This document shows positions 1 to 15,440 of a stretch of DNA of 32,000 bases, one piece after another. Each line of letters opens with the position of its first letter. Within the stretch, counting starts at the first letter, position 1. Source of the stretch: Fibrobacter succinogenes subsp. succinogenes S85 (GTDB lineage Bacteria; Fibrobacterota; Fibrobacteria; Fibrobacterales; Fibrobacteraceae); assembly GCF_000146505.1 (NCBI RefSeq), contig NC_017448.1, forward strand, positions 2,280,001 through 2,312,000, written 5' to 3'. Under the pieces are notes generated by a model. It was given only the letters and a program-made list of their open reading frames with translations, did no database searches and was not told the origin of the DNA. Position numbers and translations under genes: made by a program.

Positions 1-732
1 GGCATCAAGCTTGAAGGTCTTGTAACGGGCAAGAATACGAAGCACCTGGAACCGACCGACAATGGGCTTATTTCGGCAATGGATGTGGACCAGGCAAAGG
101 AACTTCTGGAGCTCAACTCCGATGTACTAGACTTTGCGCAGATGGATTATTTGATGAACGCCATCCATGCATGCGAAGCGGGTGCGAACCGTGTGCATTT
201 GCTCAGCGGTGAATTCCAGGGTAGCGTGCTGCAGGAAGTGTTCTCGGCCCGCGGTGACGGAACCATGGTGTACGCAAACCAGTACTCCAGTATCCGCCCG
301 GCAACGATTGAAGACATCCCGGATATCTTACGCATCATGCAGGATTACATCGCGAAGGGCTATCTTGTACCGCGTACGCAGGATTCCATCTCCGAAAAAT
401 TGGAAGATTACGTTGTCTATAGCATTGACAACAGCATCCATGGCTGTGGCGCACTCCATGCCTTCGAAGACGGCATGGCCGAAGTTGCGGGAATTGCAGT
501 CGGTGCGAACTACCGCAAGTCCGGCATTGGCGAAGCCATCGTGCGCCACCTGATTTCACTGGGTCGCATGAAGGGCTACAAGACTTTGTTCTTGCTCACG
601 ACGCTGGCTCTCGATTGGTTCTACCAGCTTGGATTTGAAGATGGTACTGTTGAAGAATTGCCGAAGAGCAAACGCGAGCATTACAATCAGAAACGTAAGT
701 CTAGAATCTTGATGCTACCATTGAACAAGTAA
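1..732 (+). CDS. argA: Amino-acid N-acetyltransferase (N-acetylglutamate synthase), C-terminal ~243 codons; 5' end lies outside the window
   Basis: Frame 1 is open from base 1, so the ORF-track Met at 79 is internal. The translation parallels the C-terminal half of E. coli-type ArgA as I recall it. VLQEVFSARGDGTMV matches LLQELFSRDGIGT. The GNAT acetyl-CoA loop is AVGANYRKSGIGEAIV. The tail LPKSKREHYNQKRKSRILM matches LPESKKQLYNYQRKSKVLM. Confidence 0.85.
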   Translation, partial: GIKLEGLVTGKNTKHLEPTDNGLISAMDVDQAKELLELNSDVLDFAQMDYLMNAIHACEAGANRVHLLSGEFQGSVLQEVFSARGDGTMVYANQYSSIRPATIEDIPDILRIMQDYIAKGYLVPRTQDSISEKLEDYVVYSIDNSIHGCGALHAFEDGMAEVAGIAVGANYRKSGIGEAIVRHLISLGRMKGYKTLFLLTTLALDWFYQLGFEDGTVEELPKSKREHYNQKRKSRILMLPLNK

Positions 733-791
733 TTCGCGCGCATTTATAAACGGTGAACATTTCGTTTATTGTCACCGTCTTTTAACATTTC

Positions 792-821
792 ATCCGGCCA
801 TTAGGCCGGATTATCTTTTTT
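792..821 (+). terminator. Rho-independent terminator downstream of argA
   Basis: Perfect 8-bp GC-rich stem ATCCGGCC / GGCCGGAT with loop ATTA, followed by TATCTTTTTT. Confidence 0.8.
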
Positions 822-877
822 ATATACTCTGTTCTAAATAGAGTTTGTATATTTACAGAAAATAGGGAGAAGTGAAA

Positions 878-2650
878 ATGAAAAATGCGGCACTTGCGCT
901 GCTGTTTGTGTTTTGGGGCTTGATGGCGTGCTCTGATGCCGGTAACGATGGCGGAGAAATCCTTGTCCGTTACGATGAAGATGGGATGAAATTTTCCCCG
1001 ACGGAAATAGATGGCATTGTGGGTTACATGCCCTTGATGAAGGCGGAGTCTGTCAGAATTGTAACTGTCGATGCGTCGCTTAACCCGGTGGATTCTTTTG
1101 AAGTGCCGATAGATTCTCTGGAATGGGGTTCTGATGGATTCAAGGTAGATTCTCGTGACTATGAATATCCGTATGTGAAGCTTGTGACGATTTTTCCGTT
1201 AGGGGAAAACGGGAAAATGGAGTTCCCGCAGTATTTAAACTTGCTGACGTATAATTCAAATATCTTTTTGCAGTTTTATGGTGCCGTGATTTCTGGGCGT
1301 GTTGAAACGCTTGTTCGTGATAAGGGCTTTCGCCTACGCGATGCCAAAAAAAAGGCTTACAAGGAACTTGAAGAAGCGTTGGGAACATCTATTGGTAGTC
1401 CTGATAGTAGAGCCTTTTACGATCGCGATGATTATGGAAGGCCGGGACTTTGGGATTTATGGATTTACCTCCTTTGCAGACATGAAATTTCGGATAGCTT
1501 GTTCTATAGCGATTTCAAGGAACTGCGGGATTCCTTTGCTAAGGAAGGGACGATTAGTGCTTCTATAAAGGCACGAGCAGGCGATGCCTGGCTTTCTACT
1601 TTTAAGATTTCGGCGGATTCTACGGAGCGTGATCTTTTTAAGAGCACAAGTCGCGATACCTCTTTAATTCTGCAACGTTTGGATACGGCGTTCTTTAAAT
1701 GGGCGTATGGGATTGAGAATGCCTGGAAAGATTCTGTCAAGATTGAAAATGAGCATAGCGAATACAATGGTCGTATGTTTGTCTATGAGGAACGGTGCAA
1801 CTTGAGTTCTTGCGGATGGCGCCTGAAGGCTCCGCTTGAAGAAAAAATTGGCGCCTGTCTGTATGACAGGAGTCGTTATGCGGAGCTTGATGGAGTCTCT
1901 TATGTGTGCCGCAATGAGTCGTTTGTGTGGGTGCCTGTGAGCGATGTGGATACTATTTTGAAACACAAGTACAGCCGTTGCGAGGAAAAAGCTTATGGAC
2001 AATATGGCGAAATAGGCTTCTATAACGACAACATGTATGTCTGCGATTGTGAATCTGAGGACAAGTGCAACTGGACCGAAGTCAAAGAGGACTTTAAGGC
2101 GACCGTACTGGATACGCCGACGGTCAATGTCTTGGCGACGAAGCTTTATGGCGAATGCAGGGATCATGATGGCGAAAAACATGTGATGGATAGTATTCTG
2201 GTGCGTTGCCGCTGGACAAAGTGGCTTAAAGTCGATACGCTCTCGTATTACATGGGCATTTGCAAAAATGGTTCCAATAGGGATGAATTTGGCCAGTTGG
2301 AAAACGGCGATTACTATAAGTGCAGGGCTTATGGCGGAGAAAAGTGGGAACGCTGCACGTATGCCGATGTGCAAGGAGACTTGTGCAACTGGGTGACTGT
2401 TGATATCTATAAAAAATATGACGACAAGTATTTCCATTGTAAAAATGAAAAATGGAACGAGGTCTCGGAAGAGGATGTCTATGCGCCTGTCGTGAAGGGC
2501 GACTCCTGCAGTTCCAAAAACGAGAAGGAAATAAAGAAGTACGATGATGAATACTTTGTCTGCCGGAGAATAGTCACGGAGGGTAAGGAACTATATTATT
2601 GGCAAATTGCAAATAAATCGGATTTGGAATCTTATAAGGACGAAAACTAG
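878..2650 (+). CDS. Lipoprotein, uncharacterised Cys-rich paralog family, copy 1 of 4
   Basis: ATG 878 lies 7 nt after AGGGAGA (864-870); the ORF track starts at GTG 872. Lipobox is FWGLMAC|SD. Motifs shared with the next three genes: RYDxxGxxxSP, RDYEYPxVK(L/I)V, KMEFxQY, SGRVETLV, CRHE(I/V)SDSxFYS, DAWLSTF, SRD, IENxxSxYxGRxFVYE. The C-terminal half has about six modules of the form C-x(9-20)-[YF][YFIV]xC-x(3-8)-W. Confidence 0.85.
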   Translation: MKNAALALLFVFWGLMACSDAGNDGGEILVRYDEDGMKFSPTEIDGIVGYMPLMKAESVRIVTVDASLNPVDSFEVPIDSLEWGSDGFKVDSRDYEYPYVKLVTIFPLGENGKMEFPQYLNLLTYNSNIFLQFYGAVISGRVETLVRDKGFRLRDAKKKAYKELEEALGTSIGSPDSRAFYDRDDYGRPGLWDLWIYLLCRHEISDSLFYSDFKELRDSFAKEGTISASIKARAGDAWLSTFKISADSTERDLFKSTSRDTSLILQRLDTAFFKWAYGIENAWKDSVKIENEHSEYNGRMFVYEERCNLSSCGWRLKAPLEEKIGACLYDRSRYAELDGVSYVCRNESFVWVPVSDVDTILKHKYSRCEEKAYGQYGEIGFYNDNMYVCDCESEDKCNWTEVKEDFKATVLDTPTVNVLATKLYGECRDHDGEKHVMDSILVRCRWTKWLKVDTLSYYMGICKNGSNRDEFGQLENGDYYKCRAYGGEKWERCTYADVQGDLCNWVTVDIYKKYDDKYFHCKNEKWNEVSEEDVYAPVVKGDSCSSKNEKEIKKYDDEYFVCRRIVTEGKELYYWQIANKSDLESYKDEN

Positions 2651-2659
2651 AGGTTTGCG

Positions 2660-4057
2660 ATGGGCTATGTAAAAGCGTCTTTGCTGTTTCTTGTCTTGTG
2701 GCTTGTCGCCTGTTCTAGCGTTGATAGCGGTGACGGTGTCGTTGCCCGCTACGATAAAGATGGAACCCAGTATTCACCTGCGTTTATGCGCGGGATTGTC
2801 TATTACCTGAAGGGCATGAAGCCGGAAAAGATCAAGATTGTAAGCGTTGATGCAAAGCTCAATCCTATTGATTCTATTGAAGTTTCTGTTGCAAAGGATG
2901 ATGACGGGCGGTATGCCTTTGGGGTGGGCGACCGCGATTACGAATATCCGTTTGTAAAGATCGTGCCGGTGTTCCCGCTGGGTGAAAATGCAAAGATGGA
3001 ATTTGCCCAATATGTGCGCTTAAGAGAGTTCAATATTGACATCGCGCTGAACCTCCCAGAGGCAGTGATGTCTGGGCGTGTTGAAACGCTGGTGCGGGAA
3101 AAGGAACTGGATTTTGACTCGGCGATGACGCAGGCGATTGCTGAAATGCGGCAAGCGTTCAATACGTTTTCTGATGTCATGTCTTATGAAATGTATGTCA
3201 ATGAATATATTGCAAACGAGGCTAGACTTAATGGGCTCTTGATGTACATTTATTGCCGTCATGAAGTTTCGGATAGCGTTTTTTATAGCACGTTCAACGA
3301 ATATCGTGAAACGTTTGCCAAATCGGGGATTGCGGACTCCGCTTTGCTTGTGAAGTCTGCGGATGCATGGCTTTCAACTTTTAAAGTTTTTGACGATATG
3401 GATGAACATACCCAATTTAGGAGCTTGTCAAGGGATTCTGTCTTTGGGGTGAGCCGCTGTGACTATAGCCTCTTTAGGCGCGCTTATGGAGCACCTTTGC
3501 AGTTGACTACGGATATTTGGGAAACAGGTTCAGAATTTTATTCCCGTATTGAAAATAAGTCTAGCATGTATGATGGCCGTACATTTGTCTATGAAAAAAG
3601 GCTTGGCTATTGGCGGATGCAGACGGAATTGGATGATTCCATGGGTGTTTGCCTGTACGGGAATGATTTGGTCGGCGAATACAATGACTCTTATTACCGC
3701 TGTAGGCCGGGGTCTGCCTCGTGGAATGAAGAAACCCGTCGGGATTCGTTGTTGAACAAGATTTTCGGTAACTGCGCTCGGCATTATGCGTCTAATGGAG
3801 TTTCAGGCTATTTGAGAGATTCCCTGTTTGTCTGCGAATGCGATACTTCGCGAGTGTGCGCATGGACGGACAAGTATGTCAATAGTACTTTCAAAAAAGG
3901 CGATGATCTGTATGCATCTGCATTGAGTGCGAGAGCCGTTCAGCGTTATGGCAAGTGTTCTGATGATTTAATTGGTGAAGTGAGACAGATCGATAGTGTA
4001 TCGGTGAGTTGCACCTGGTTTTATGGCTGGAAACTGGTGGAAAATGATGAGGAGTAG
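2660..4057 (+). CDS. Lipoprotein, uncharacterised Cys-rich paralog family, copy 2 of 4 (shortest, about three Cys modules)
   Basis: ATG 2660 lies 9 nt after the copy-1 stop, with AGAGG upstream. Lipobox is LWLVAC|SS. It has the same conserved motif series as copy 1: ARYDKDGTQYSP, RDYEYPFVKIV, KMEFAQY, SGRVETLV, CRHEVSDSVFYS, ADAWLSTF. Confidence 0.85.
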   Translation: MGYVKASLLFLVLWLVACSSVDSGDGVVARYDKDGTQYSPAFMRGIVYYLKGMKPEKIKIVSVDAKLNPIDSIEVSVAKDDDGRYAFGVGDRDYEYPFVKIVPVFPLGENAKMEFAQYVRLREFNIDIALNLPEAVMSGRVETLVREKELDFDSAMTQAIAEMRQAFNTFSDVMSYEMYVNEYIANEARLNGLLMYIYCRHEVSDSVFYSTFNEYRETFAKSGIADSALLVKSADAWLSTFKVFDDMDEHTQFRSLSRDSVFGVSRCDYSLFRRAYGAPLQLTTDIWETGSEFYSRIENKSSMYDGRTFVYEKRLGYWRMQTELDDSMGVCLYGNDLVGEYNDSYYRCRPGSASWNEETRRDSLLNKIFGNCARHYASNGVSGYLRDSLFVCECDTSRVCAWTDKYVNSTFKKGDDLYASALSARAVQRYGKCSDDLIGEVRQIDSVSVSCTWFYGWKLVENDEE

Positions 4058-4063
4058 TTGGCG

Positions 4064-5740
4064 ATGAGGATGTGTATGATTTGGCTTCTGTTTGTTTTGT
4101 TGGGTTTGGTGGCGTGCTCTGAAAGCGAGAATCACGTCGTGGCGAGATATGACGATGTCGGGTTTCAGTATTCTCCTACGGCATTGCAGGGCGTAATTGA
4201 ATACGCTCCTCCCTTGGTTCCGGAATATGTGAGAATTGTCCGCGTCGACAGCATGTTGAATTCGAAGGATTCAATCGAGATCATTCTGGATTCAACCTTC
4301 AAGAATTCGTTCGTCTTTAAGATTGCCGAACGCGATTATGAATTCCCTTACGTGAAGATTGTGGGGGTCTTTTCGGATGGGAAAAAGAAGGTGGAGTTTC
4401 CGCAGTATGTGGATTTGCGCGAATCCAACAACGACTTGAAACTGAATTTAAATGCGTCGCTAGCGGCGGGCCGCATTGAAACGCTAGTGCAGAAGGAAGG
4501 CCTTGATTTCTCGGCCGCCGAAGAAAAAGCGTATTCTGAGATGACGGAGATTTTCAAGGCAGATTTTAATGCGTGGAATACGTACCGGTTTAAGGATGTC
4601 CATTACGCGAACCGCTGGGAACTTTATGAACCGTACCTTTACTGCCGTCACGAAATTTCGGATAGCGTGTTTTACAGCGACTACAAGGAGATGAGCGAAT
4701 ATTTTGCCAAGACGGGAAAAGTTGATTCATCGTTGATTGTCCGTGCGGCAGATGCGTGGCTCTCTACATTTGCACCTGCAAAGGATAAAAATGGAAGGCC
4801 GACTTATAAGAGTTTTTCAAGAGATACTTTGTTTGTTAATTATGCCTATTATGGTCGTGTCTTTGAGCGTATATATGGATTGACCATGCCTGCATGTAAT
4901 AGCTATAATCACCAAGTGACGATAGAAAATAAAAGAAGTGAGTTTTATGGTCGCAAGTTTGCTTGCCCCTGCGAATACGATAACTGGGCGTCTATATGCT
5001 TTTACCGGTTGGTGGACCCTATTGAGGATACGCTTGGCCTGTGCCTGTTGCAGACTACTACTGTTGCGGAGTATAACAATGCGTATTACGTGTGCAAGGA
5101 AAAGGATAATGTCTGGAAGGCCGAAAGCGAAATTGATACAGTGCTAAAATACAAGTTCGGTGCATGCGGTAATTCAGAGACGAAAAATCAGTTCTTTTAC
5201 TTGAATGATTCGCTGTTCTTTTGTGAATGCGATGGTGATAATTGTTCCTGGACGGATCGGTTTGTCAACAAGGATATCAACGAAGAGGACTCTCTGTATG
5301 CAGCTGTCCTGAATGCGAGGGGGGTGCAAAAGTTTGGAAAATGCCAAACGAATAATTCCTATTCGGGCGATAAATATCCACTTGACAGCGTCTTTGTCCA
5401 ATGCCAATATGGCAAATGGGGGCGTATTGATTCACTGACGTATTATCTGGGTGGCTGCTCCAGGGATAAAGCGGAACATTTGGGCGTCTACTATTCGTGC
5501 GAAGGGAGCCTGTATCATGAACGTTTCTTGACATGGCAGAATATATGGAAGGAAATTCCTGCTCCGGTATATTATGGGGAAGAATGCTATTATATACATT
5601 TTGGCGAAGTCGTAGAACATGATGGTTTTTCTTTTGTCTGTGAAGCAACGGATGCGTGTAAAAATGAAGATGGTGTTGTAGTGCCTGAAATACGATTTGA
5701 TCCCGGTTGCGATTACTATTGGCAAAAACAAGATAAATGA
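4064..5740 (+). CDS. Lipoprotein, uncharacterised Cys-rich paralog family, copy 3 of 4
   Basis: ATG 4064 lies 9 nt after GAGGAG (4049-4054); the ORF track uses TTG 4058, which abuts the copy-2 stop. Lipobox is LGLVAC|SE. It has the same motif series: ARYDDVGFQYSP, RDYEFPYVKIV, KVEFPQY, AGRIETLV, CRHEISDSVFYS, ADAWLSTF. About five Cys modules. Confidence 0.85.
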   Translation: MRMCMIWLLFVLLGLVACSESENHVVARYDDVGFQYSPTALQGVIEYAPPLVPEYVRIVRVDSMLNSKDSIEIILDSTFKNSFVFKIAERDYEFPYVKIVGVFSDGKKKVEFPQYVDLRESNNDLKLNLNASLAAGRIETLVQKEGLDFSAAEEKAYSEMTEIFKADFNAWNTYRFKDVHYANRWELYEPYLYCRHEISDSVFYSDYKEMSEYFAKTGKVDSSLIVRAADAWLSTFAPAKDKNGRPTYKSFSRDTLFVNYAYYGRVFERIYGLTMPACNSYNHQVTIENKRSEFYGRKFACPCEYDNWASICFYRLVDPIEDTLGLCLLQTTTVAEYNNAYYVCKEKDNVWKAESEIDTVLKYKFGACGNSETKNQFFYLNDSLFFCECDGDNCSWTDRFVNKDINEEDSLYAAVLNARGVQKFGKCQTNNSYSGDKYPLDSVFVQCQYGKWGRIDSLTYYLGGCSRDKAEHLGVYYSCEGSLYHERFLTWQNIWKEIPAPVYYGEECYYIHFGEVVEHDGFSFVCEATDACKNEDGVVVPEIRFDPGCDYYWQKQDK

Positions 5741-5751
5741 TTTTGGAGGAA

Positions 5752-7962
5752 ATGATGAATTTTAAAAGTGTTGTTTTGACGGTGCTTGCGGCTTTGCTTT
5801 TTGTCGCCTGTTCCGATAACGGCGAAGATGCTGTCATTGCCCGATTTGATGAATCTGGGTACCAGTATTCTCCTCGCTCAATAAGTGTTGTTGTTGAGTA
5901 TTTGCCAACGATGAAGCCTTCGGCGGTCCGTGTTGAGGTTGTCGATAGGCAGCTGAATGCCGTGGATACGATAGAACTGTTCAGGGATACTTCATCTTGG
6001 AACGGAAAGCGTTTTACCATGGAGTCTCAGGATCTTGAATATCCGCTTCTGAGGATTGTAACGGAGTTTCCGTATGGCGAAAAATCCAAGATGGAATTTT
6101 CGCAGTACTATCTCCTGAGTTCAAAATACCGCAGCTACAATATCAGCCAGAATATTTTCATGGCACTTGCATCTTCGCGTTTTGAACATTTTGTAAAGAA
6201 GGAAAATTACAGCTTTGCAGATGCCGAGGATACGGTGATGAGTGAGTTGTCAAAAAGATTTAGCAACACTGCGTATAAAATCGTGACGTATGAATTCCCT
6301 TCTTACGATGTTGGGTTTGATGATTTGCTTTTGTACGTGATTTGCAGGCACGAAATTTCGGATAGCCTGTTCTATAGCGATTTCAGGAAGTTGCGTGAGT
6401 CCTATGCCGAGAAGGGTTTTGTTGATACGACGATAGCTATTACGGCTGCCGATGCGTGGCTTTCTACGTTTGAAAATGTCCCTACTACATATTCGCTTGA
6501 AACCGTATTCCGGAGTGTTTCGAGAGATACAGCCGTGGACTTGAAAAATATGCAGAAGGAATTTTTCAGCCAGGTTTATGGAATAAAATTCACGACAGAC
6601 GATTCAATAAAAATTGAGAAAAAGTCCAGTGCTTATTATGGGAAATACTTTTATTATGACAATGACGGCAATAGCATTTATTATGCACAGTGGCGATTCA
6701 AAAATCCTATCGAAGATACCCTTGGACTGTGCCTGCTTAAGACAAAGTCTCTTGTCACGTATAAGGGCGATGAATATTTATGCGAGAGTGGCTCAAACAT
6801 CTGGAGAAAGAATGTGTCCCATGATGAACTGCTAAAAGGCTATTATGATCGTTGTTGGGAATTCAGTAACAATGATGCTATCTATGTCAGGGATTCGTTG
6901 TATGTCTGTGAATGCGACGAGTCTAAAAATTGCGCCTGGAGCGATAAGTATGCCGGTAAGGAAGTGCCTAGAACAGATTCAGCCGCTTTTGCAAAATATA
7001 TTGCAGTAAAAGCGGTCGGCCAATTTGGGAAGTGTTATACCGATGGTTATGGCGCTCTGAAAAAGCTGGATGATGTGTATATACAGTGCATTGACTCCAA
7101 ATGGCTTGAGGTGGATTCGTTGACATACTATATCGGCCATTGCGCAAAGGATCATGTGAAAGGTGAATACCTTGGGATTTATTATGGGTGCCGTGATTTT
7201 GCTGATTACGGTGCTGGCGATACTGTGTGGGCTGAAATACCGTGGTTCGTCTATAAGGATGATTCATGCACTGAGAAAAAACTGAAAAAAGTGAACAGTG
7301 ATGGTAAGAATTATTTTATTTGTGAAAAGAGTGATGGAGAAAAGGATGATTCCAATGCGGAGTACAAATGGCGTAAGCTTGATAGTGCAGAAGCGATTCC
7401 GCCTGTGATTAACATGGATACATGTGAAAATGTGGTTCCTTATAACTATTTGAAAAAGATTTACGATGATGAATATTACATGTGCGAGGATGGTAAGTGG
7501 CATTCTGTAGACAAGGAAAAACTTACTGCTCCGGAAAAGGCGGGAGATATTTGTTCCTGGGCGTTGCTCAATACTGTAAAAAGGTACGATGGAAAATATT
7601 ATCGATGCACCGCGATTAACATGTGGTATGCTGAAGATGTCGTAACTTCAGTCAGCTATGCATATCGCGACAGCCTTGGAAGTTGCGATACTCTTTCGAA
7701 CGTTGGTTTGCACTGGAACGAGGAAACTTCGGCACTTTGGAGCTGCGTAAGATCCGGTGACAAATACCAGTGGGGTAAAATTGAGTTGCAAGAAAGGGAA
7801 GGTGTTTCCTTGCCGGAGAATATTGAATTGAGCCGTTTTGCGGGCGGAACCCGTGTTAGCCCCTTGATTTATACCGTGGATATTGACGGGACTGATTATC
7901 GTTTTTCTGCGCCGATAGCTAGCGTATGGTATTTGACTGGGATTGTAGAACCTGAAGAATAA
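5752..7962 (+). CDS. Lipoprotein, uncharacterised Cys-rich paralog family, copy 4 of 4 (longest, about eight Cys modules)
   Basis: The start is ambiguous. ATG 5737 overlaps the copy-3 stop (ATGA) but gives an acidic N-terminus (MILEEMM). ATG 5752/5755 follows GGAGGA (5745-5750) and gives MMNFKSVVLTVLAALLFVAC|SD, a normal lipoprotein signal. It has the same motif series: ARFDESGYQYSP, QDLEYPLLRIV, KMEFSQY, CRHEISDSLFYS, ADAWLSTF. Confidence 0.85.
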   Translation: MMNFKSVVLTVLAALLFVACSDNGEDAVIARFDESGYQYSPRSISVVVEYLPTMKPSAVRVEVVDRQLNAVDTIELFRDTSSWNGKRFTMESQDLEYPLLRIVTEFPYGEKSKMEFSQYYLLSSKYRSYNISQNIFMALASSRFEHFVKKENYSFADAEDTVMSELSKRFSNTAYKIVTYEFPSYDVGFDDLLLYVICRHEISDSLFYSDFRKLRESYAEKGFVDTTIAITAADAWLSTFENVPTTYSLETVFRSVSRDTAVDLKNMQKEFFSQVYGIKFTTDDSIKIEKKSSAYYGKYFYYDNDGNSIYYAQWRFKNPIEDTLGLCLLKTKSLVTYKGDEYLCESGSNIWRKNVSHDELLKGYYDRCWEFSNNDAIYVRDSLYVCECDESKNCAWSDKYAGKEVPRTDSAAFAKYIAVKAVGQFGKCYTDGYGALKKLDDVYIQCIDSKWLEVDSLTYYIGHCAKDHVKGEYLGIYYGCRDFADYGAGDTVWAEIPWFVYKDDSCTEKKLKKVNSDGKNYFICEKSDGEKDDSNAEYKWRKLDSAEAIPPVINMDTCENVVPYNYLKKIYDDEYYMCEDGKWHSVDKEKLTAPEKAGDICSWALLNTVKRYDGKYYRCTAINMWYAEDVVTSVSYAYRDSLGSCDTLSNVGLHWNEETSALWSCVRSGDKYQWGKIELQEREGVSLPENIELSRFAGGTRVSPLIYTVDIDGTDYRFSAPIASVWYLTGIVEPEE

Positions 7963-7978
7963 TATTACATTTAAAAAC

Positions 7979-8569
7979 ATGAATACACTCGAAGCTATCA
8001 AGACTCGTCGCAGCACGCGCAAGTTCAAGGCGCAGCCTGTTGAAATTGAAAAGTTGAAACTGATTGCCGAAGCAGGGCAGTTTGGCCCGACCGGTGGTAA
8101 CGCGCAAGGTAATCACTTCCTTGTGATTTCGGATGCGGCGGTGATTGCAAAGCTCAAGGAGCTCGTGCAGTCCGCATTTGCAGCGATGGAACTTCGCGAA
8201 GACCTTTACAAGAGCCTCAAGAATTCTATCACGCTTTCGCGCAAGGGCAATTATTCTTTCTGCTATACGGCGCCTGTGCTTATCGTCGTTGCGAATAAAA
8301 AAGAATATGGCAACAACATGGCGGATGTCGCCTGCGCTGTCGAAAACATGATGCTTGCCGCGAATGAACTCGACCTTGGCAGTTGCTATATCAATCAGCT
8401 CAAGTGGCTGAATGAAGACCCGACGCTTTTGGAATACCTGCGCGGTCTTGGTCTTAAGGAAGATGAACGCGTCTACGCCTCTGTTGCGATTGGCTATGCC
8501 GATACGGAATCGGGACTTCCGAACCGCGCGGAAACTCCCCGAACAGGCAACGAAGTCGTGTTTGTTTAA
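7979..8569 (+). CDS. Nitroreductase-family oxidoreductase
   Basis: The N-terminal signature is TLEAIKTRRSTRKF (RRSxRxF), followed by PTGGNAQGNHFLVI. The length of 196 aa is typical of the family. It starts only 16 nt after paralog 4 with no intervening hairpin, so it may be co-transcribed with the array. Confidence 0.8.
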   Translation: MNTLEAIKTRRSTRKFKAQPVEIEKLKLIAEAGQFGPTGGNAQGNHFLVISDAAVIAKLKELVQSAFAAMELREDLYKSLKNSITLSRKGNYSFCYTAPVLIVVANKKEYGNNMADVACAVENMMLAANELDLGSCYINQLKWLNEDPTLLEYLRGLGLKEDERVYASVAIGYADTESGLPNRAETPRTGNEVVFV

Positions 8570-8577
8570 TACAGGTG

Positions 8578-8617
8578 ATCCCGCGGTTTAAAAAACATCG
8601 CGGGATTCATTTTTTTA
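8578..8617 (+). terminator. Rho-independent terminator between the convergent nitroreductase and FISUMP genes
   Basis: Stem GATCCCGCG / CGCGGGATT(C) followed by ATTTTTTT on the + strand. It overlaps the stop codon of the minus-strand gene. Confidence 0.7.
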
Positions 8618-10783
8618 TTCCTTGACGCAGCGGACGGGAGCCTTGATGTTGTTTATGTCACTGGAGAATTTGCGAGACTTTATTTCGTAGGTTGTTATTT
8701 CCGCTACCGTTATGTCTTTCCATCCGGTATCCTGGATCCAGAAGTACTGATAGTCGCTATTCACATAGACTTCTCTATTAAATAGGCCGGTCTTGGTGAA
8801 ACTCAGTCCATATTTATCCAATCCATCATAGCCAAGGCCCAAGCTATTCATCTGCGAGAACAATGCATTGAACAACTTTCGCGTCGAGGACACACTAACT
8901 TCTTCTGAGTCGTCAGGAGTACTTAGAAGTGCAACTTCGTTATTTGTCGGGAATCTCCATCCCTCCGGGCAGGCTTGTTTCGCAGCATTTATGGTATAGT
9001 AGTAACCAGAATTTTTGCAATTGTCACTTTTGCAGTATTTTTTGTCAACTTCAAAGGTTTCTGGAGTTCCTTGATACTTGAGATTTTCGGCCATCCATGT
9101 TGTTCCTCGGTAGCCAATGGTACGATAGGTGCGGCCATCTCTCGGATCTGAAAACGAGCCGTATTCAATGTTGGGATTGAAATAAAGTTCGTATGGAATT
9201 TCCCAGGATTCGTCTTTGCTTGAATACCACTTTCCGTCTTTGCAGGCATAATTCGTCTTGTATTTTTTGTCCTTTTCATTGGCCGTAGAGTACCTTGCGC
9301 CATTTTCGCAAGTGATTTCGTCAAATTGATGCCATTTGCCTTCATGGCACACATAATACATAGATTGGAGTTCTTGGCTTTCGAAATGTTTGCCCTCTTC
9401 GTCGCATGGGATCTTGTAGGTTTCCCTTTCCAAGCGGGTGGCTAATCCCCAAATGCCGTCCCTACAAATATGGAATGAATCTGGAGCCACGACGCTTTTT
9501 ATCATTTCCCCATTTTTTTCACAGGGAACGTCCGCGACTTCGGCTTCAAAAGGAGTCGCCTTGTCCCATGCATTTAGGGTATATTCTCGATTCCAGAGAT
9601 ATTCCCCGGTCCAGACGGTATCCCTACAAATATAAACCCCTCCAGGATTCAGTTTGCTCTTGAACAATGCTCCTACTGTATCGCACGGGATTTGCTTCAT
9701 TTCGATCTTGACGGTCGTTGTTGAATCCCATCCACTATCGGCTGTGCAAATATAGGAGCGTTCGGGGTTCTTGCGGCTCACGACGAACTTGCCGTCGGCG
9801 TCGCAGGGAATTCCCGACGTTTCGACATCCAGTGGAGAGGCTATTTCCCAATTGGTATAGGTATCGTCATTTATGGTATAATTGTCAGTTATGGTATAAG
9901 CGTAATACCTGCTACTTTTGCATACTAATGAACTGTCTTTGTTGAACATCCCGACCATCGCATCGCTGCAGTACGGCATTCCGGAGCACTTGCGCCAGAT
10001 GTTCTTGATGATGGCTTCCGGGTCCAAAATCTCGTGTTCATCGTATACGCATCCTATGGGCATGAAATTAAAGGCAACTTGGTCAAATGTATCGTATGGC
10101 TTATTACTGAAGCAGTAATTTTTCGGTTCAAGCTTGCCGTCTGCAAAATCGTCGACCAAATACGCTTTCAATTGATCGCTGCCACTTCTGTAAAGGTAGA
10201 ACAAGGTATATTCCATATAATATACCGGCATTTGGCGATCGGCAAGCAGGGAGTCTAGACCGAGTTCTTGCAACAGTTCTTCTGCCGCCTGTATCCAAGC
10301 GGAATCGTGTGCTGCTCCTTGTTTTTCAAGAACCTCGAGACGTTTTTCGACAAAGGCGCTCAGGACTCCATATTTCTCATCTTTCATCATAATGGCTGCG
10401 TACGAGGGCTCCTTGGCGGATCCCGCTTTTATCTTTGCTATTTTCGCAGCGGGCATCGCTTCCAGTAAGTCTGTGTAGACATTGGGGGCTGTTGTGCATC
10501 CGTGATTTTCCGGAATGTGTATTTTGACTTTGTATGAACTTGATGACTCCATTTTCACCGAGGAACTGCTTTCCTCCACGACAGAACTCGAGGATTTGAT
10601 TTCCAAAAGTGAACTAGACGAATTTTCTGAACTGGACGAACTTTCATTAATCGCAATGGCGGGTTCGTCTTCCCAAACGCCGGCGTCCTGTGGGTTTTCG
10701 GTTTCGGAGCAGGCGTCGAAAAATGCGATGGCAAGGAACAATGCGACAATCGGTAGGCTATTCAAAGTTTTCAACATTTTCAT
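8615..10783 (-). CDS. Lipoprotein with C-terminal FISUMP domain (Fibrobacter succinogenes major paralogous domain, TIGR02145 type)
   Basis: Lipobox is AIAFFDAC|SE, followed by a Ser-rich linker (SSSSSENSSSS...SSSS...). There are five repeats of (I/V)PC(D/E)xxG...(Y/F)(I/V)CxxGxW. The C-terminus reads FSDPRDGRTYRTIGYRGTTWMAENLKY...CPEGWRFPTNNE...FWIQD...PVRCVKE, which matches the FISUMP consensus as I know it. Confidence 0.85.
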   Translation of the reverse strand: MKMLKTLNSLPIVALFLAIAFFDACSETENPQDAGVWEDEPAIAINESSSSSENSSSSLLEIKSSSSVVEESSSSVKMESSSSYKVKIHIPENHGCTTAPNVYTDLLEAMPAAKIAKIKAGSAKEPSYAAIMMKDEKYGVLSAFVEKRLEVLEKQGAAHDSAWIQAAEELLQELGLDSLLADRQMPVYYMEYTLFYLYRSGSDQLKAYLVDDFADGKLEPKNYCFSNKPYDTFDQVAFNFMPIGCVYDEHEILDPEAIIKNIWRKCSGMPYCSDAMVGMFNKDSSLVCKSSRYYAYTITDNYTINDDTYTNWEIASPLDVETSGIPCDADGKFVVSRKNPERSYICTADSGWDSTTTVKIEMKQIPCDTVGALFKSKLNPGGVYICRDTVWTGEYLWNREYTLNAWDKATPFEAEVADVPCEKNGEMIKSVVAPDSFHICRDGIWGLATRLERETYKIPCDEEGKHFESQELQSMYYVCHEGKWHQFDEITCENGARYSTANEKDKKYKTNYACKDGKWYSSKDESWEIPYELYFNPNIEYGSFSDPRDGRTYRTIGYRGTTWMAENLKYQGTPETFEVDKKYCKSDNCKNSGYYYTINAAKQACPEGWRFPTNNEVALLSTPDDSEEVSVSSTRKLFNALFSQMNSLGLGYDGLDKYGLSFTKTGLFNREVYVNSDYQYFWIQDTGWKDITVAEITTYEIKSRKFSSDINNIKAPVRCVKE

Positions 10784-10791
10784 ACATTCCC

Positions 10792-11616
10792 CTAGGTTTC
10801 ATCGACTTTCTTCGTCAATGGGAAAAGTTGCAGATTCAGGCGGTAGACCTGGTTAATTTTTTTGCATTCGCCGGCGATGGCGGCTACCTTGCGGCGGCAC
10901 TCGTTCACCTCGCGCTCGATACGGCGGTAGGTAATTTCGTCGACGCCCATGGTGAGGCCCGAGACGCTTCGTTCGTCAACTTCTGTGTTGTCCAGCGACA
11001 GAAAGCCGAGACGGCCCATTTCGCGGTTCATGGAGCGTACCGTCAGGGGCAAGGCGTCCTTCGAAATCTTTACCATTTTCGAAGTCTGCTCGTAGGAATT
11101 CTCGCCCGTCTTTTTTAGAAGTCCTGTCTTTACCAAGAACTGGAGTGTATCGCGGACATCGAGCGCCGTAACCTCGGAATTGATTTTTGCGGCCATTTCG
11201 CTTGGAAGTGCGCCTGGCATCAGCGGGGCAAGTTCCCGCACGATCGGGCACACCGGATGTTCACAGAAGCGGAAACCGTCCGCATTCAGGACGTGCATCT
11301 TGTTCTCTTTGGCCGACTGCAGGATTTTCGCAAGCACGGTCTTCTTCTCGGCATCGCTTTTCACATGGCCCAATTGCACTAGGTTTTCAAAGAAGGTTCG
11401 TTCGAATCCCTCGAGACCCATAGCCTTCGCGACTTTTTGAATGCCGGGCTTGCTCAAGTTTGTCTTTCCGTCGCACACCAGTTTCAAGTACGTGGGCGAG
11501 ACGAATCCGGCTAGCTTGGCGAATTCCCTCCACGAAAACGCGGATGACTTCTTCCGCTCCTCGTAGAAATCGCGCATGTAGCAACGATAATCCAAATAAT
11601 TAAGAATGGGCTTCAT
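10792..11616 (-). CDS. TIGR02147 / DUF4423-type protein (putative HTH DNA-binding protein of a Fibrobacter paralogous family)
   Basis: ATG at 11616 is preceded by AAAGGAAAG; the ORF-track start at 11649 is a TTG. The N-terminus reads ILNYLDYRCYMRDFYEERKKSSAFSWREFAKLAGFVSPTYLKLVCDGKTNLS, typical of this family and HTH-like. At 274 aa it fits the family length of about 270 aa. It ends 8 nt upstream of the FISUMP gene on the same strand. Confidence 0.7.
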   Translation of the reverse strand: MKPILNYLDYRCYMRDFYEERKKSSAFSWREFAKLAGFVSPTYLKLVCDGKTNLSKPGIQKVAKAMGLEGFERTFFENLVQLGHVKSDAEKKTVLAKILQSAKENKMHVLNADGFRFCEHPVCPIVRELAPLMPGALPSEMAAKINSEVTALDVRDTLQFLVKTGLLKKTGENSYEQTSKMVKISKDALPLTVRSMNREMGRLGFLSLDNTEVDERSVSGLTMGVDEITYRRIEREVNECRRKVAAIAGECKKINQVYRLNLQLFPLTKKVDET

Positions 11617-11773
11617 GTTCACTTTCCTTTCGTTTTCAGTTGGCACCAATGCGCCCCGACATCTATAAATTTAATTTCGCGACATTTCTGAAGGCAATAA
11701 AAAAATATTACAAAGTCTTGAATTTTTGAGCAAAAACATCAATTTTTTTAATTTTTTAAAGCGAAATTTTAAT

Positions 11774-12621: not shown

Positions 12622-12676
12622 GGGGTATTTTACTTAGTGGATGGGACCGAGGTTTTGGTTAAGAGGAGTGCATAAA

Positions 12677-13978
12677 ATGAAATCAAAAATCCTAAAGATT
12701 GCTGTTTTGGCAAGTGCCATAGCTTTCATCAACTGCGGTGACGAAACCGCTCTTGCCCCTTACCTGAATGGTGGTGCTCAGGGGGTATCGTCAAGTTCGG
12801 ATGCTGTGGAATCTGAAATCTCTAGCTCTGACGTGGCTCTGCCAGGTTCTAGCGCTAATGCAGAAACGGGCTCGGAAACCTCGTCGAGTTCTGGTGCGGT
12901 TCAGCAGGGCTCCAATACCGATGCTCCCGCTTCCAGCAGCGACGAAAGCTGCTTGGCTTCTAGCCTGCCCGATGCATGCGGCCCGGGAACGAATCCGCTT
13001 CCGACTTCGAGCAGCGATGCTGCCGTAGCTTCTAGCGCCGACGCTCAGAGTGCTACTTCCAGCGCCAATGTGCAGGAGCCGGCATCGAGCTCTAGTGAAG
13101 CTGCAAAACCGGCTAGCTCTTCGAGCGAAAAGAAAGTCGAATCTTCTTCCAGCGAAACTAAGGTGGCATCCAGCTCCAGTGCCGAAGCCCCGAAGGGCAT
13201 TTTCCTTGCTAGTGGCAAGGAAGAAGAAAAGGACCAGATGCAGGTGGAATACAAGACCCGCACCGGCTGGGATGGCGGTGGAATCCTCTCGTATCCGAAG
13301 CAACTTTCTTCGACTCAAAAGCATGGCGTCGTGGTTTGGGGACCGGGTGGCGGTACCGAACCGGGTGCTTATGAAGGCATGATCCGCAGGCTCGCTTCTC
13401 ACGGCTTCGTGGTGATCGCTCTTAAGGAATCTCCGGGTGATGCATCCCAGGCCATAAAGGCTTTGGATTGGCTCGACAAGCAGAACAAGGATCAGAATAG
13501 CCCGCTGTTTGGCAAGCTCGACATGAATACGGTCGGTTGCTCCGGTCACTCCATGGGTGGTCTTGAATCTGAACAGGCTGTCATCAAGGACAAGCGCGTG
13601 CTTACGGCGTTCCTCAACAACAGTGGCGACTGGAATGGTGCAGGTGCAAAGAACGTGGCGACGGACCGTACGATTGCAATTCTCTTCGGTGAAGTCGGCA
13701 TGGAAAAGGACAACGCCAAGAACGACTACAACAATTCTGGCGTGAAGGCTCCGGCTTGCCTTATCGAAATGACGGGTGGCCCGCGTAACTCCGAAGGCGG
13801 TTATGGTCACGGTTCTGGCTCTTGGGATGGCATGGCAGCAACGGTTGCCTGGATGCGCTGGCATCTCGGTGGCGAAACGGAACGCAAGGCCGATTTCGTG
13901 GGTACGACCGGCAAGTATATCGATGGCAGCATCATCGGTAAGCAGGGCAAATGGAAGACCCAGTGTAAGAACTTCTAA
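12677..13978 (+). CDS. Secreted alpha/beta-hydrolase lipoprotein (cutinase / PETase / dienelactone-hydrolase-like esterase), copy 1
   Basis: ATG 12677 lies 8 nt after AAGAGGAG. The signal is MKSKILKIAVLASAIAFINC|GDE. A Ser/Ala-rich linker of about 150 aa follows. The catalytic domain has VVVWGPGGGTEPGAY, the nucleophile elbow GCSGHSMGG, GYGHGSG (a possible His) and the tail AWMRWHLGGE...QCKNF. Confidence 0.7.
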   Translation: MKSKILKIAVLASAIAFINCGDETALAPYLNGGAQGVSSSSDAVESEISSSDVALPGSSANAETGSETSSSSGAVQQGSNTDAPASSSDESCLASSLPDACGPGTNPLPTSSSDAAVASSADAQSATSSANVQEPASSSSEAAKPASSSSEKKVESSSSETKVASSSSAEAPKGIFLASGKEEEKDQMQVEYKTRTGWDGGGILSYPKQLSSTQKHGVVVWGPGGGTEPGAYEGMIRRLASHGFVVIALKESPGDASQAIKALDWLDKQNKDQNSPLFGKLDMNTVGCSGHSMGGLESEQAVIKDKRVLTAFLNNSGDWNGAGAKNVATDRTIAILFGEVGMEKDNAKNDYNNSGVKAPACLIEMTGGPRNSEGGYGHGSGSWDGMAATVAWMRWHLGGETERKADFVGTTGKYIDGSIIGKQGKWKTQCKNF

Positions 13979-14198: not shown

Positions 14199-15440
14199 AT
14201 GAAATCTAAACTCTTAAAAACTGTGGTGTTGGCCAGTTCCTTGGTCTTCCTGAATTGCGGTGACGATGTCACGTCTGCAATCAACAACTACGCTGCCGGA
14301 TTCTCGTCCAGCTCTGCTGAAGAAGTTCAGCCGGGTACGAGCTCTGACTCTCAGGGTGATGCTGGCACAGAAATTTCTAGCTCTGCAGCTCAGCAGAATC
14401 AAGACGCAATCCTTCCGGGTTCCAGTGCGGATGTTGGGCCGCAGGTGGAATCTAGCAGTACTGTCGCTCCGGGTGCAGAATCCTCTGCTGATGTTGCCGC
14501 AAGCTCTAGCTCTGTCGATGCTCCGGCATCGAGCTCCGAAAAAGCTCTGGTCGTAAGTTCCAGTTCGGTGAGTGCTCCTGCTGTAAGCTCCTCGAGTTCC
14601 GAAGAAAAGGTGGAATCCAGTTCTAGTGAAGAAGCAAAGCCGAAGGGCGTATTCCTTGCCGAAGGCTCGGACGAAACTAAGGACCAGATGCGAGTCAAGT
14701 ACATTGAACGCACCGGTCACGATGGCGGTGGAATCCTTGCTTATCCGGAACAGCTTTCTAACGACCAGAAGCACGCTGTTGTCGTGTGGGGGCCGGGTGG
14801 CGGCACGGAACCGGGTGCATACGGTGGAATTATCCGTCGTCTCGCATCTCACGGCTTTGTCGTGATTGCACTCCGTGAATCTCCGGGTAACGCAACCCAG
14901 GCAATTCCTGCCCTCAACTGGCTCGAAAAGAAGAACAAGGATCCGAATGATCCTCTGTACCAGAAGCTTGATATGACGAAGGTCGGTTGCTCCGGTCACT
15001 CCATGGGCGGTCTCGAATCTGAACAGGCCCTCATCAAGGACGATCGCGTGATTACCGCTATGCTCAACAACAGTGGTGACCTCGGACATACGGCTATGTC
15101 TCAGGTTTCTGCAAGCAAGACTGTCGGTATTGTTTATGGCGAAGGCGGCATGGAACGCCCGAACGCTGAAGCAGACTATAACAACCAGGGCGTCAAGGCT
15201 CCGGCTTGCCTCATCAAGATGACGGGCGGTCAGGGCAATGAATGCCAGCAGGGCGAATGCGGCTGGGGCCATGGTTCCGGTCCGTGGGGCGGCATGGCTG
15301 CAACGGTTGCCTGGATGCGTTGGCACCTCGGTGGCGAAGACTTCCGCAAGGCAGATTTCGTCGGTACGAGCGGCCGTTACATCAATGGTGAAATCATCGG
15401 TGAACGTGGCCATTGGAAAGGCCAGTGCAAGAACTTCTAA
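14199..15440 (+). CDS. Secreted alpha/beta-hydrolase lipoprotein (cutinase / PETase-like esterase), copy 2 (tandem paralog)
   Basis: The signal is MKSKLLKTVVLASSLVFLNC|GDD, followed by a Ser-rich linker. The catalytic domain is roughly 70% identical by eye to copy 1, with the same GCSGHSMGG, AWMRWHLGGE and QCKNF end. It carries an extra Cys-containing insert, GQGNECQQGECGWGHG. Confidence 0.7.
   Translation: MKSKLLKTVVLASSLVFLNCGDDVTSAINNYAAGFSSSSAEEVQPGTSSDSQGDAGTEISSSAAQQNQDAILPGSSADVGPQVESSSTVAPGAESSADVAASSSSVDAPASSSEKALVVSSSSVSAPAVSSSSSEEKVESSSSEEAKPKGVFLAEGSDETKDQMRVKYIERTGHDGGGILAYPEQLSNDQKHAVVVWGPGGGTEPGAYGGIIRRLASHGFVVIALRESPGNATQAIPALNWLEKKNKDPNDPLYQKLDMTKVGCSGHSMGGLESEQALIKDDRVITAMLNNSGDLGHTAMSQVSASKTVGIVYGEGGMERPNAEADYNNQGVKAPACLIKMTGGQGNECQQGECGWGHGSGPWGGMAATVAWMRWHLGGEDFRKADFVGTSGRYINGEIIGERGHWKGQCKNF

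Follow-up and report, generated by a model that had tools for sequence, protein, structure and literature searches.

Fisuc_1505 to Fisuc_1508 of Fibrobacter succinogenes S85: a tandem array of putative headless FISUMP-type lipoproteins at a variable locus

The 32,000-nucleotide stretch of Fibrobacter succinogenes S85 analysed here (NC_017448.1, positions 2,280,001 to 2,312,000; the window) carries four tandem paralogous genes on the + strand, called W1 to W4 below, which appear to encode short, headless members of the FISUMP-type lipoprotein superfamily of Fibrobacter. A 12.6-kb stretch of the window differs from the S85 sequence CP001792.1 at a single base. The genes correspond to Fisuc_1505-1508 (FSU_1987-1990) and are long-known hypothetical open reading frames (ORFs) of the type strain; three of the four products are entered in NCBI and UniProt as 'putative lipoprotein', with 'hypothetical protein' also among the names, and a literature search found the array's locus tags in the main text of no paper.

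The ORF listing of the window places W1 (Fisuc_1505/FSU_1987; ACX75102, C9RRB6) at 872-2650, W2 (Fisuc_1506/FSU_1988; ACX75103, C9RRB7) at 2660-4057, W3 (Fisuc_1507/FSU_1989; ACX75104) at 4058-5740 and W4 (Fisuc_1508/FSU_1990; WP_244263604, C9RRB9) at 5737-7962, in agreement with the four consecutive + strand genes that an earlier note on this DNA had described between 872 and 7962. Their lengths depend on the start codon: W1 encodes 592 residues (590 from the NCBI start at 878), W2 465, W3 560 (558 from the NCBI start at 4064) and W4 741 (736 from the NCBI start at 5752). The spacers of 9, 6 and 11-14 nt given by the earlier note hold for ATG starts at 4064 and 5752/5755, but with the first possible starts W2 and W3 abut (0 nt) and W3 and W4 overlap by 4 nt. 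Over their full lengths the four proteins are 35-40% identical to one another.

Upstream, a terminator-like hairpin on the + strand (792-811; an 8-bp stem with six GC pairs, then TATCTTTTTT), graded strong, separates the array from argA. Downstream, the nitroreductase gene Fisuc_1509 (7979-8569, + strand) begins 16 nt 3' of W4, with no terminator or hairpin in that gap. A second hairpin, ATCCCGCG ... CGCGGGAT followed by T7, lies at 8578-8616 between the convergent nitroreductase gene and Fisuc_1510; it was read by eye, being absent from the automated terminator scan because its loop is 13 nt long, and probably marks where the transcription unit ends. The nitroreductase gene is thus likely to be a fifth cistron of the array, a possibility that the earlier note had raised and that the conserved adjacency of the two (12 of 13 loci, below) makes plausible. 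In chemostat RNA-seq (Neumann et al. 2018, PMC6204037, Table S2), mean regularised log values were 9.17, 7.83, 7.54 and 9.27 for Fisuc_1505 to 1508, then 8.2 for the nitroreductase gene, with standard deviations of 0.15-0.26. These levels are uneven for a presumed operon and so suggest either a promoter inside the unit, 5' of W4, or mRNA segments of unequal stability. At 4880-4909, inside W3, lies the site that comes closest to a sigma-70 promoter in the region (11/12).

In composition, the array differs from its surroundings less than the earlier note had proposed. GC content per gene is 42-46%, so the 27-43% quoted previously was overstated, against 50-57% in neighbouring genes; at third codon positions (GC3) it is 0.44-0.50 versus 0.55-0.69. 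The supposedly distinctive use of TTA, CTA and TCA codons disappears on counting, since the array has 12-18 per 1000 codons, within the neighbours' range of 0-21. Coding-strand GC skew in window positions 1001-8000 is +0.15 to +0.27 per kb, versus about -0.09 to +0.10 elsewhere in the window, and probably reflects a composition rich in Asp, Glu, Gly and Lys.

Six independent assemblies, one of them the complete S85 genome, carry the same array, which rules out a duplication introduced by assembly, the artefact against which the earlier note had cautioned. Recent gene conversion between the paralogues is also ruled out, because the DNA stretches they share are short and 68-86% identical; the paralogues are old.

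Each protein begins with a hydrophobic leader containing Lys or Arg, followed by a lipobox, as previously noted (LMAC, LVAC, LVAC and FVAC in W1 to W4, with Cys codons at 929-931, 2711-2713, 4115-4117 and 5809-5811). By lipobox and leader, all four thus have the N-terminal lipoprotein signal described for the FISUMP domain family (PMC11661182). Behind the lipidated Cys lies a constant N-domain, at 929-1831 in W1 (alignments A2 and A3), 2711-3625 in W2, 4115-5017 in W3 and 5809-6705 in W4. Across the mature N-terminal ~300 residues, the proteins are 39-44% identical in pairs and share 66 invariant columns. These include all of the islands listed in the earlier note, among them RYD..G..YSP, RDYEYP, KMEF.QY, GR.ETLV, CRHE.SDS.FYS, ADAWLSTF, SRD and IE..S.Y.GR.F. 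The nucleotide string GAAATTTCGGATAGC, which encodes EISDS and had been reported as identical in three of the four copies, is exact at 1484, 4652 and 6352 and differs by a single base at 3263; four matches did not arise in any of 100 shuffles.

The remainder of each protein is built from Cys-pair modules. By Cys positions, W1, a short form, has six (M1-M6 with an acidic tail, 1832-2647, all on the + strand), W2 three (M1-M3, 3626-4054), W3 five (5018-5737) and W4 eight with a tail (6706-7959), matching the counts of the earlier note. The modules are heterogeneous. M1 to M4 each belong to a type that is tied to its position and kept from paralogue to paralogue, the second type carrying an additional CxC...C, and the distal modules alone are true repeats, with the consensus PPV..GD.C-x10-12-YD..YY.C-x3-7-W. 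The picture of lipoproteins with a constant domain and a variable number of Cys-pair modules therefore stands. Disulfide stabilisation of the modules, which we infer from the Cys pairs, would stiffen the chain into an extended rod.

To what family do these proteins belong? Scans of W1 to W4 against Pfam-A and NCBIfam found no model at E<=1, including TIGR02145 and PF09603, the models for the ~175-200-residue FISUMP domain (cut-offs 41.65 and 33.9 bits, respectively), and our own hidden Markov models (HMMs) for FISUMP and FISUMP-like domains were also negative. Homologs are nevertheless plentiful. A word-indexed search of 5.8 billion proteins found 16 clusters, with Fibrobacter the sole organism name among them. 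When 1.84 billion representatives were searched with a profile and without a word index, 130 clusters reached E<=1e-3, including 39 at <=1e-30, and every labelled member was from Fibrobacter. The family is thus lineage-specific, as the earlier note had supposed.

We classified these relatives with our own HMMs for the N-domain, the module, canonical FISUMP and the C-terminus of long forms. Most full-length relatives are lipoproteins of 800-950 residues that have the same N-domain and the same Cys modules, followed by a FISUMP or FISUMP-like C-terminal domain. About 40 clusters among the matches listed are 780-950-residue lipoproteins with an N-domain, three to eight modules and a C-terminal domain of ~260 residues ending in ..ECPKDLYPMVQ..CVKD. 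In more remote members, such as P0102, P0110, P0116 and P0121, a canonical TIGR02145 domain is present (1e-30 to 1e-100). The N-domain profile matched long forms with a FISUMP-like end at E 1e-114 to 1e-20, and canonical TIGR02145 proteins at E 1e-6 to 1e-4 over profile positions ~95-293. In all four array proteins, then, the N-terminal ~300 residues are homologous to proteins that end in FISUMP or FISUMP-like domains.

The long-form C-terminal domain may itself be related to canonical FISUMP. TIGR02145 gives sub-threshold matches on it (E 0.004-0.013), and hhalign joins the two at 94% probability (E 1.4e-7), confidently over a 20-column CP.G.H.P..EW core only; the extended alignment covers positions 2-187 with low per-column confidence, and the CVKD end is common to both. 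The tail of W4 (..AGG..TVDIDGTDYRF..EPEE) matches the linker that long forms such as P0037 have ahead of their FISUMP-like domain. Because the same parts carry FISUMP or FISUMP-like C-termini in these relatives, we place the N-domain and Cys modules as the putative, unmodelled 'stalk' of the Fibrobacter FISUMP lipoprotein superfamily, and W1 to W4, judged by homology, as headless short forms that end before the lectin-like head. The earlier note could match the conserved region to no known family and proposed an HMM search. Pfam, NCBIfam and the sequences in PDB indeed hold no match, but the relatives found are FISUMP-bearing Fibrobacter lipoproteins, and the conserved region is the front part of such proteins.

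The full head-bearing architecture of the wider family can be seen in the convergent neighbour of the array, Fisuc_1510 (8615-10783, - strand), a lipoprotein of 722 residues that has, besides a Ser-rich linker and Cys-pair modules, a canonical FISUMP domain at its C-terminus (TIGR02145 1.7e-27, 97.2 bits; PF09603 6.7e-13). One of its modules matches the module HMM, and the match to the iterated N-domain profile is marginal only (E 0.01). Proteins with TIGR02145 number 54 in S85 and 17-119 in other Fibrobacteres (PMC4704652). In surveys of diversity-generating retroelements (DGRs), FISUMP is annotated in target proteins, beside C-type-lectin and DUF1566 domains bearing the variable region (PMC11661182).

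The AlphaFold2 model of the mature W1 N-domain, built from a 14-sequence alignment (mbc3f21d64077; predicted local distance difference test score, pLDDT, 81.4; predicted template-modelling score, pTM, 0.82), has an eight-strand beta-sandwich (residues ~20-114), a helix bundle (116-260) and a small beta region. On the DNA, the N-domain of W1 thus divides into the acidic post-Cys segment, an immunoglobulin (Ig)-like sandwich (~986-1270), a helical domain (~1274-1708) and the small beta region. A second model, of the helical domain and all modules (W1 134-592; pLDDT 68, pTM 0.50), predicts that each module forms a beta meander of three strands with a short helix after it. In Foldseek comparisons of the N-domain with PDB, the sandwich alone was matched (CopC, carbohydrate-binding modules CBM41 and CBM20, amylase N-domains and Ig domains; best E 4e-3); no target spanned the entire N-domain, and no enzyme fold appeared. 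The comparison with BFVD gave weak local matches of the same generic beta-sandwich kind, and the helical-plus-module model reached E 0.12 and a template-modelling (TM) score of 0.2 at best, again with no enzyme fold. Profile searches of PDB sequences with 4- and 32-sequence alignments returned chance matches only (E 0.26 and 1.6), and a homology search with the two-module alignment A8 returned no matches, the word index giving 52 candidates only. Structure comparison, which the earlier note had suggested as a check, therefore yielded generic sandwiches and no characterised family, and the N-domain and the Cys-pair module are two unmodelled domains without solved relatives.

One motif might have pointed to catalysis. 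If the Cys-Arg-His-Glu-x-Ser-Asp-Ser motif of the helical domain formed an active site, the array proteins would be undescribed hydrolases, and its H, E, S, D and S (RHE.SDS.FY) are indeed invariant in the 14 closest sequences. However, more distant clear homologs read RHFVSDS, RYFESDS, RFEPSDS or LWEAPDS, keeping only DS.FY; because H and E are not conserved in them, the catalytic reading of the motif is rejected. Together with the missing enzyme fold in Foldseek and the missing sequence matches in Pfam, NCBIfam and PDB, this leaves an enzymatic role highly improbable.

A role in attachment to plant fibre, which the earlier note had offered, deserves closer attention. The sandwich and the aromatic-rich Cys modules would then bind cellulose or hemicellulose and aid adhesion. 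Proteins with TIGR02145 have been proposed as cohesin analogues or as cellulose-binding (PMC4704652); Y, F and W make up 14-16% of residues; CBM41, CBM20 and amylase N-domains are among the targets that Foldseek matched best to the sandwich (E 6e-3 to 0.1, TM-score to target 0.4-0.64); and in other strains the same island holds carbohydrate-binding proteins or a glycoside hydrolase family 5 (GH5) enzyme. Against this, the structural matches are generic beta-sandwiches with weak E-values (E>=6e-3 for CBM41 and CBM20), no Pfam carbohydrate-binding module was matched, and FISUMP, the proposed binding domain of the family, is precisely the part that is missing.

Expression data also argue against an adhesin. 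The chemostat study compared adherent and planktonic cultures on cellulose with cultures on cellobiose and glucose, and W1 to W4 and the nitroreductase gene all fell into its gene cluster 1, which has no systematic effect of substrate or growth rate (PMC6204037). Transcription of the array is thus constitutive, with no sign of induction by cellulose. At the protein level, a biotin-affinity envelope study by isobaric tagging (iTRAQ; Raut et al. 2019, PMC6851124) detected FSU_1987 (C9RRB6, W1) with three peptides and FSU_1990 (C9RRB9, W4 by gene order) with four, at fold changes of -1.78 and -1.50, respectively, in cellulose- versus glucose-grown cells. This drop on cellulose was general, affecting 40 of 49 putative lipoproteins (PMC6851124). 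W2 and W3 were not detected in that study, which fits their lower RNA levels, and none of the four genes is listed in the 2015 membrane proteome (PMC4619616). Adhesion to plant cell walls is therefore without support from these data, and we regard it as unlikely.

Where in the envelope would the proteins reside? Among 161 family members, the residue after the lipidated Cys (+2) is Ser in 53%, and positions +3 to +5 are Asp or Glu in 37-47%, versus 15% overall, with Lys or Arg in ~1-2%, giving the family consensus C-S-D-D-D. In the array itself, W1 (CSDAGND), W3 (CSESEN) and W4 (CSDNGED) have scattered acidic residues only, and W2 reads CSSVDSGD. The family segment resembles the lipoprotein export signals SDDDD and SDDFE, which drive surface exposure in the Bacteroidota Bacteroides and Flavobacterium (Lauber et al. 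2016, PMC5080379); that export rule was tested in Bacteroidota only. If the acidic segment works like its Bacteroidota counterpart, it would place the proteins on the cell surface, and most likely they are anchored to the outer membrane and surface-exposed.

The array proteins might instead face the periplasm, as structural or chaperone-like envelope lipoproteins. A lipobox alone does not specify surface exposure, the export signal was established outside Fibrobacter, pSORTb assigned both detected proteins to 'Unknown' (PMC6851124), and disulfide formation and isomerisation are periplasmic processes, with a DsbD homolog encoded nearby. Yet the acidic post-Cys segment found across the family resembles surface-export signals, and high turnover of copy number and sequence, on a flexible island where further secreted or surface proteins are encoded, is a usual trait of exposed molecules. 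Moreover, long-form relatives bear a C-type-lectin-like head of a domain type whose location is inferred to be extracytoplasmic (PMC4704652) and which DGR surveys report as a diversified target (PMC11661182). On balance, we think a periplasmic placement improbable.

To examine the locus in other Fibrobacter genomes, we scanned one genome per species and found 13 N-domain loci, all in metagenome-assembled genomes of rumen Fibrobacter. The left flank is argA in 13 of 13 (89-98% amino acid identity to S85) and the right flank the nitroreductase gene in 12 of 13 (78-96%). Between them lie one to four copies, in which long (~850-935 residues mature) and short (395-717 residues) forms are mixed; the variation in copy number at the syntenic site that the earlier note had asked about is thus real. 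Most pairs of N-domains are 36-50% identical, with a few closer pairs. W3 is paired with L002_2 (72% in the N-domain), a long form with a FISUMP-like end, and W1 with L001_2 (54%), also a long form. The orthologs of W4, L002_3 (75%, with the same ..EEPEE tail) and L009_1 (61%), are both short forms. The W4-type headless form is therefore stably inherited, and since orthologous pairs mix long and short forms, the head has been lost or gained repeatedly. Copy number, form and sequence all turn over between close Fibrobacter genomes, and the argA-nitroreductase site is a hot spot.

By Nei-Gojobori estimates, the ratio of nonsynonymous to synonymous substitution rates (dN/dS) is 0.17-0.25 for orthologs of the array genes, versus 0.02-0.09 for the flanks at dS of 0.3-1.7. 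Within the proteins it ranges from 0.12 to 0.51, the helical domain being most constrained (0.13-0.17) and the distal modules least (0.24-0.51). There was no gene-wide signal of positive selection, and no region reached a dN/dS of 1. The family, described earlier as rapidly diversifying, is thus better described as showing relaxed or fast evolution together with gene turnover. Given intact ORFs in different strains and a dN/dS of 0.17-0.25, we conclude that the array genes are functional, under relaxed purifying selection, and not decaying.

This conclusion bears on whether W1 to W4 are truncated, functionless leftovers of long-form FISUMP genes. All four are headless while orthologs of W1 and W3 elsewhere have a head, and lower GC3 and modest expression would also fit decay. 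However, the frames are intact in six assemblies, the W4-type short form has kept the same EEPEE tail across dS of 0.66-1.4 at dN/dS of 0.18-0.25, and all four genes are transcribed, two of the four being detected as protein. The remnant explanation is largely refuted, and we give it very little credence.

Two independent metagenome assemblies, L014 and L016, represent one strain whose divergence from S85 is 3-8% in the outer flanks, in argA and folE and in the 5' half of Fisuc_1510. In W1 to W4 and the nitroreductase gene together, the same strain differs from S85 by two substitutions, and over a ~9-kb block (window ~700-9600; 8042-16941 in L014/L016) that includes the 3' half of Fisuc_1510 by about six. 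Because this near-identical block sits between flanks that are 3-8% different, the whole cassette was evidently exchanged by recombination, or swept, between the two strains in recent time.

The wider argA-folE interval is flexible as well. Other strains carry there a 1615-residue Cthe_2159/Listeria-Bacteroides-repeat protein, other repeat proteins, a GH5 cellulase or further N-domain lipoproteins, among them a distant long form downstream of the nitroreductase gene (L001 2252-7096; L007 13435-15612; L009 12757-15405; L011 13211-14965; L004 5726-8578). A more far-reaching account, speculative and to our minds doubtful, would make this interval a flexible surface-protein island in which pressure from phage, predators or host antibody keeps many divergent alleles, and homologous recombination within the conserved flanks swaps whole cassettes between strains. 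In that case the headless proteins might be a shield or decoy that masks or competes with head-bearing FISUMP lipoproteins, and the N-domain and module would be new structural families.

Taking these results together, we consider that W1 to W4 are probably, by a modest preference, non-enzymatic, surface-exposed stalk lipoproteins, headless members of the FISUMP-type superfamily, and not cellulose-induced adhesins. Each protein consists of a Sec/lipobox leader, a short acidic segment, an Ig-like sandwich packed on the helical domain, and three to eight Cys-pair beta modules. In most full-length relatives the tip of this stalk carries a FISUMP or FISUMP-like domain; the headless forms would act as variable surface-coat, spacer or ligand-binding proteins, with diversity driven by outside pressures (phage, predators or host antibody) and not by cellulose attachment.

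Several points weigh against this interpretation. Many cytoplasmic proteins were recovered alongside W1 and W4 in the biotin-enriched proteome, so the presence of these two in it is no proof that they are surface-exposed; the export rule comes from Bacteroidota only, and the acidic run of W2 is weak. The module model is of moderate confidence only (pLDDT 68), and F. succinogenes is a strict anaerobe of a reducing habitat, in which extracellular disulfides are not guaranteed. W1 to W4 lack the FISUMP domain, so no binding target is indicated. Finally, no phase-variation device (invertible promoter or repeat tract) was seen at the array, and the missing signal of positive selection described above counts on the same side.

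Comparison with known systems helps to place the array. Among the closest are the FISUMP lipoproteins of Fibrobacter (TIGR02145/PF09603), which share its genus, leader, N-domain and Cys-pair modules (as in P0102, P0110, P0116 and P0121), occupy the same locus in other genomes as long forms of ~900 residues and adjoin it in S85 as the canonical FISUMP gene Fisuc_1510; unlike them, W1 to W4 have no FISUMP domain, and the N-domain and module fall outside curated models. Tandem paralogous genes, strong strain variation and differences in repeat number are also features of the Vlp/Vsp families of Mycoplasma and the paralogous lipoprotein families of Borrelia. The array differs from these in that no switching device was found: it has neither an invertible promoter nor tracts of homopolymer or short tandem repeats, and its copies share no long stretches of identity. 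Its four genes are expressed together, and the paralogues are old (35-44% identity). The surface lipoproteins of Bacteroidota with an export signal (SusE/F-type glycan-binding proteins, BtuG/H; PMC5080379) resemble the array proteins in a lipobox followed by Ser and, in the family consensus, an Asp/Glu run, in an Ig-like sandwich as first domain, in a modular non-enzymatic build and in membership of the same FCB superphylum. Homology stops at the generic sandwich, however, and the array has no adjacent TonB-dependent transporter or operon like a polysaccharide utilization locus.

Some other genes of the window are worth recording. Directly downstream of Fisuc_1510 lies Fisuc_1511 (10792-11649, - strand), of the TIGR02147/DUF4423 family; both belong to RNA-seq gene cluster 10, one of those in which genes affected by substrate are enriched, in contrast to the constitutive array (PMC6204037). 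Two tandem + strand ORFs at 12641-13978 and 14199-15440 have PET-hydrolase-like (PF12740) domains behind N-terminal regions of ~170-200 residues without a Pfam match. A DsbD homolog (DsbD_N, DsbD_TM and a thioredoxin-like domain) lies at 16916-18865 on the - strand, 9 kb from the array, so this strict anaerobe encodes envelope thiol-disulfide machinery nearby. At 28171-30453 (+ strand), a 760-residue ORF has no Pfam match at E<=1e-5 and is overlapped over nearly its whole length by a 740-residue ORF on the opposite strand.

What is new here is the placement of these proteins as headless FISUMP-type lipoproteins, the recognition of two domains that no curated model covers and that have no solved relative, and the description of the hypervariable locus. 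The tempting link to cellulose attachment is unsupported and has been removed. FISUMP-type lipoproteins are among the largest paralogous families of Fibrobacter (54 in S85, up to 119 in related genomes), and in some two decades of genome data neither FISUMP nor the rest of these proteins has gained an assigned function or a solved structure. This analysis provides the first domain-level map of the family, with an unmodelled stalk of Ig-like sandwich, helical domain and Cys-pair modules that is common to many members. The headless variants, being under purifying selection, provide natural material for telling apart what the stalk does and what the head does, and the argA-nitroreductase site is a tractable hypervariable locus for studying surface variation, recombination and possibly interactions with phage or host in a key degrader of rumen fibre.

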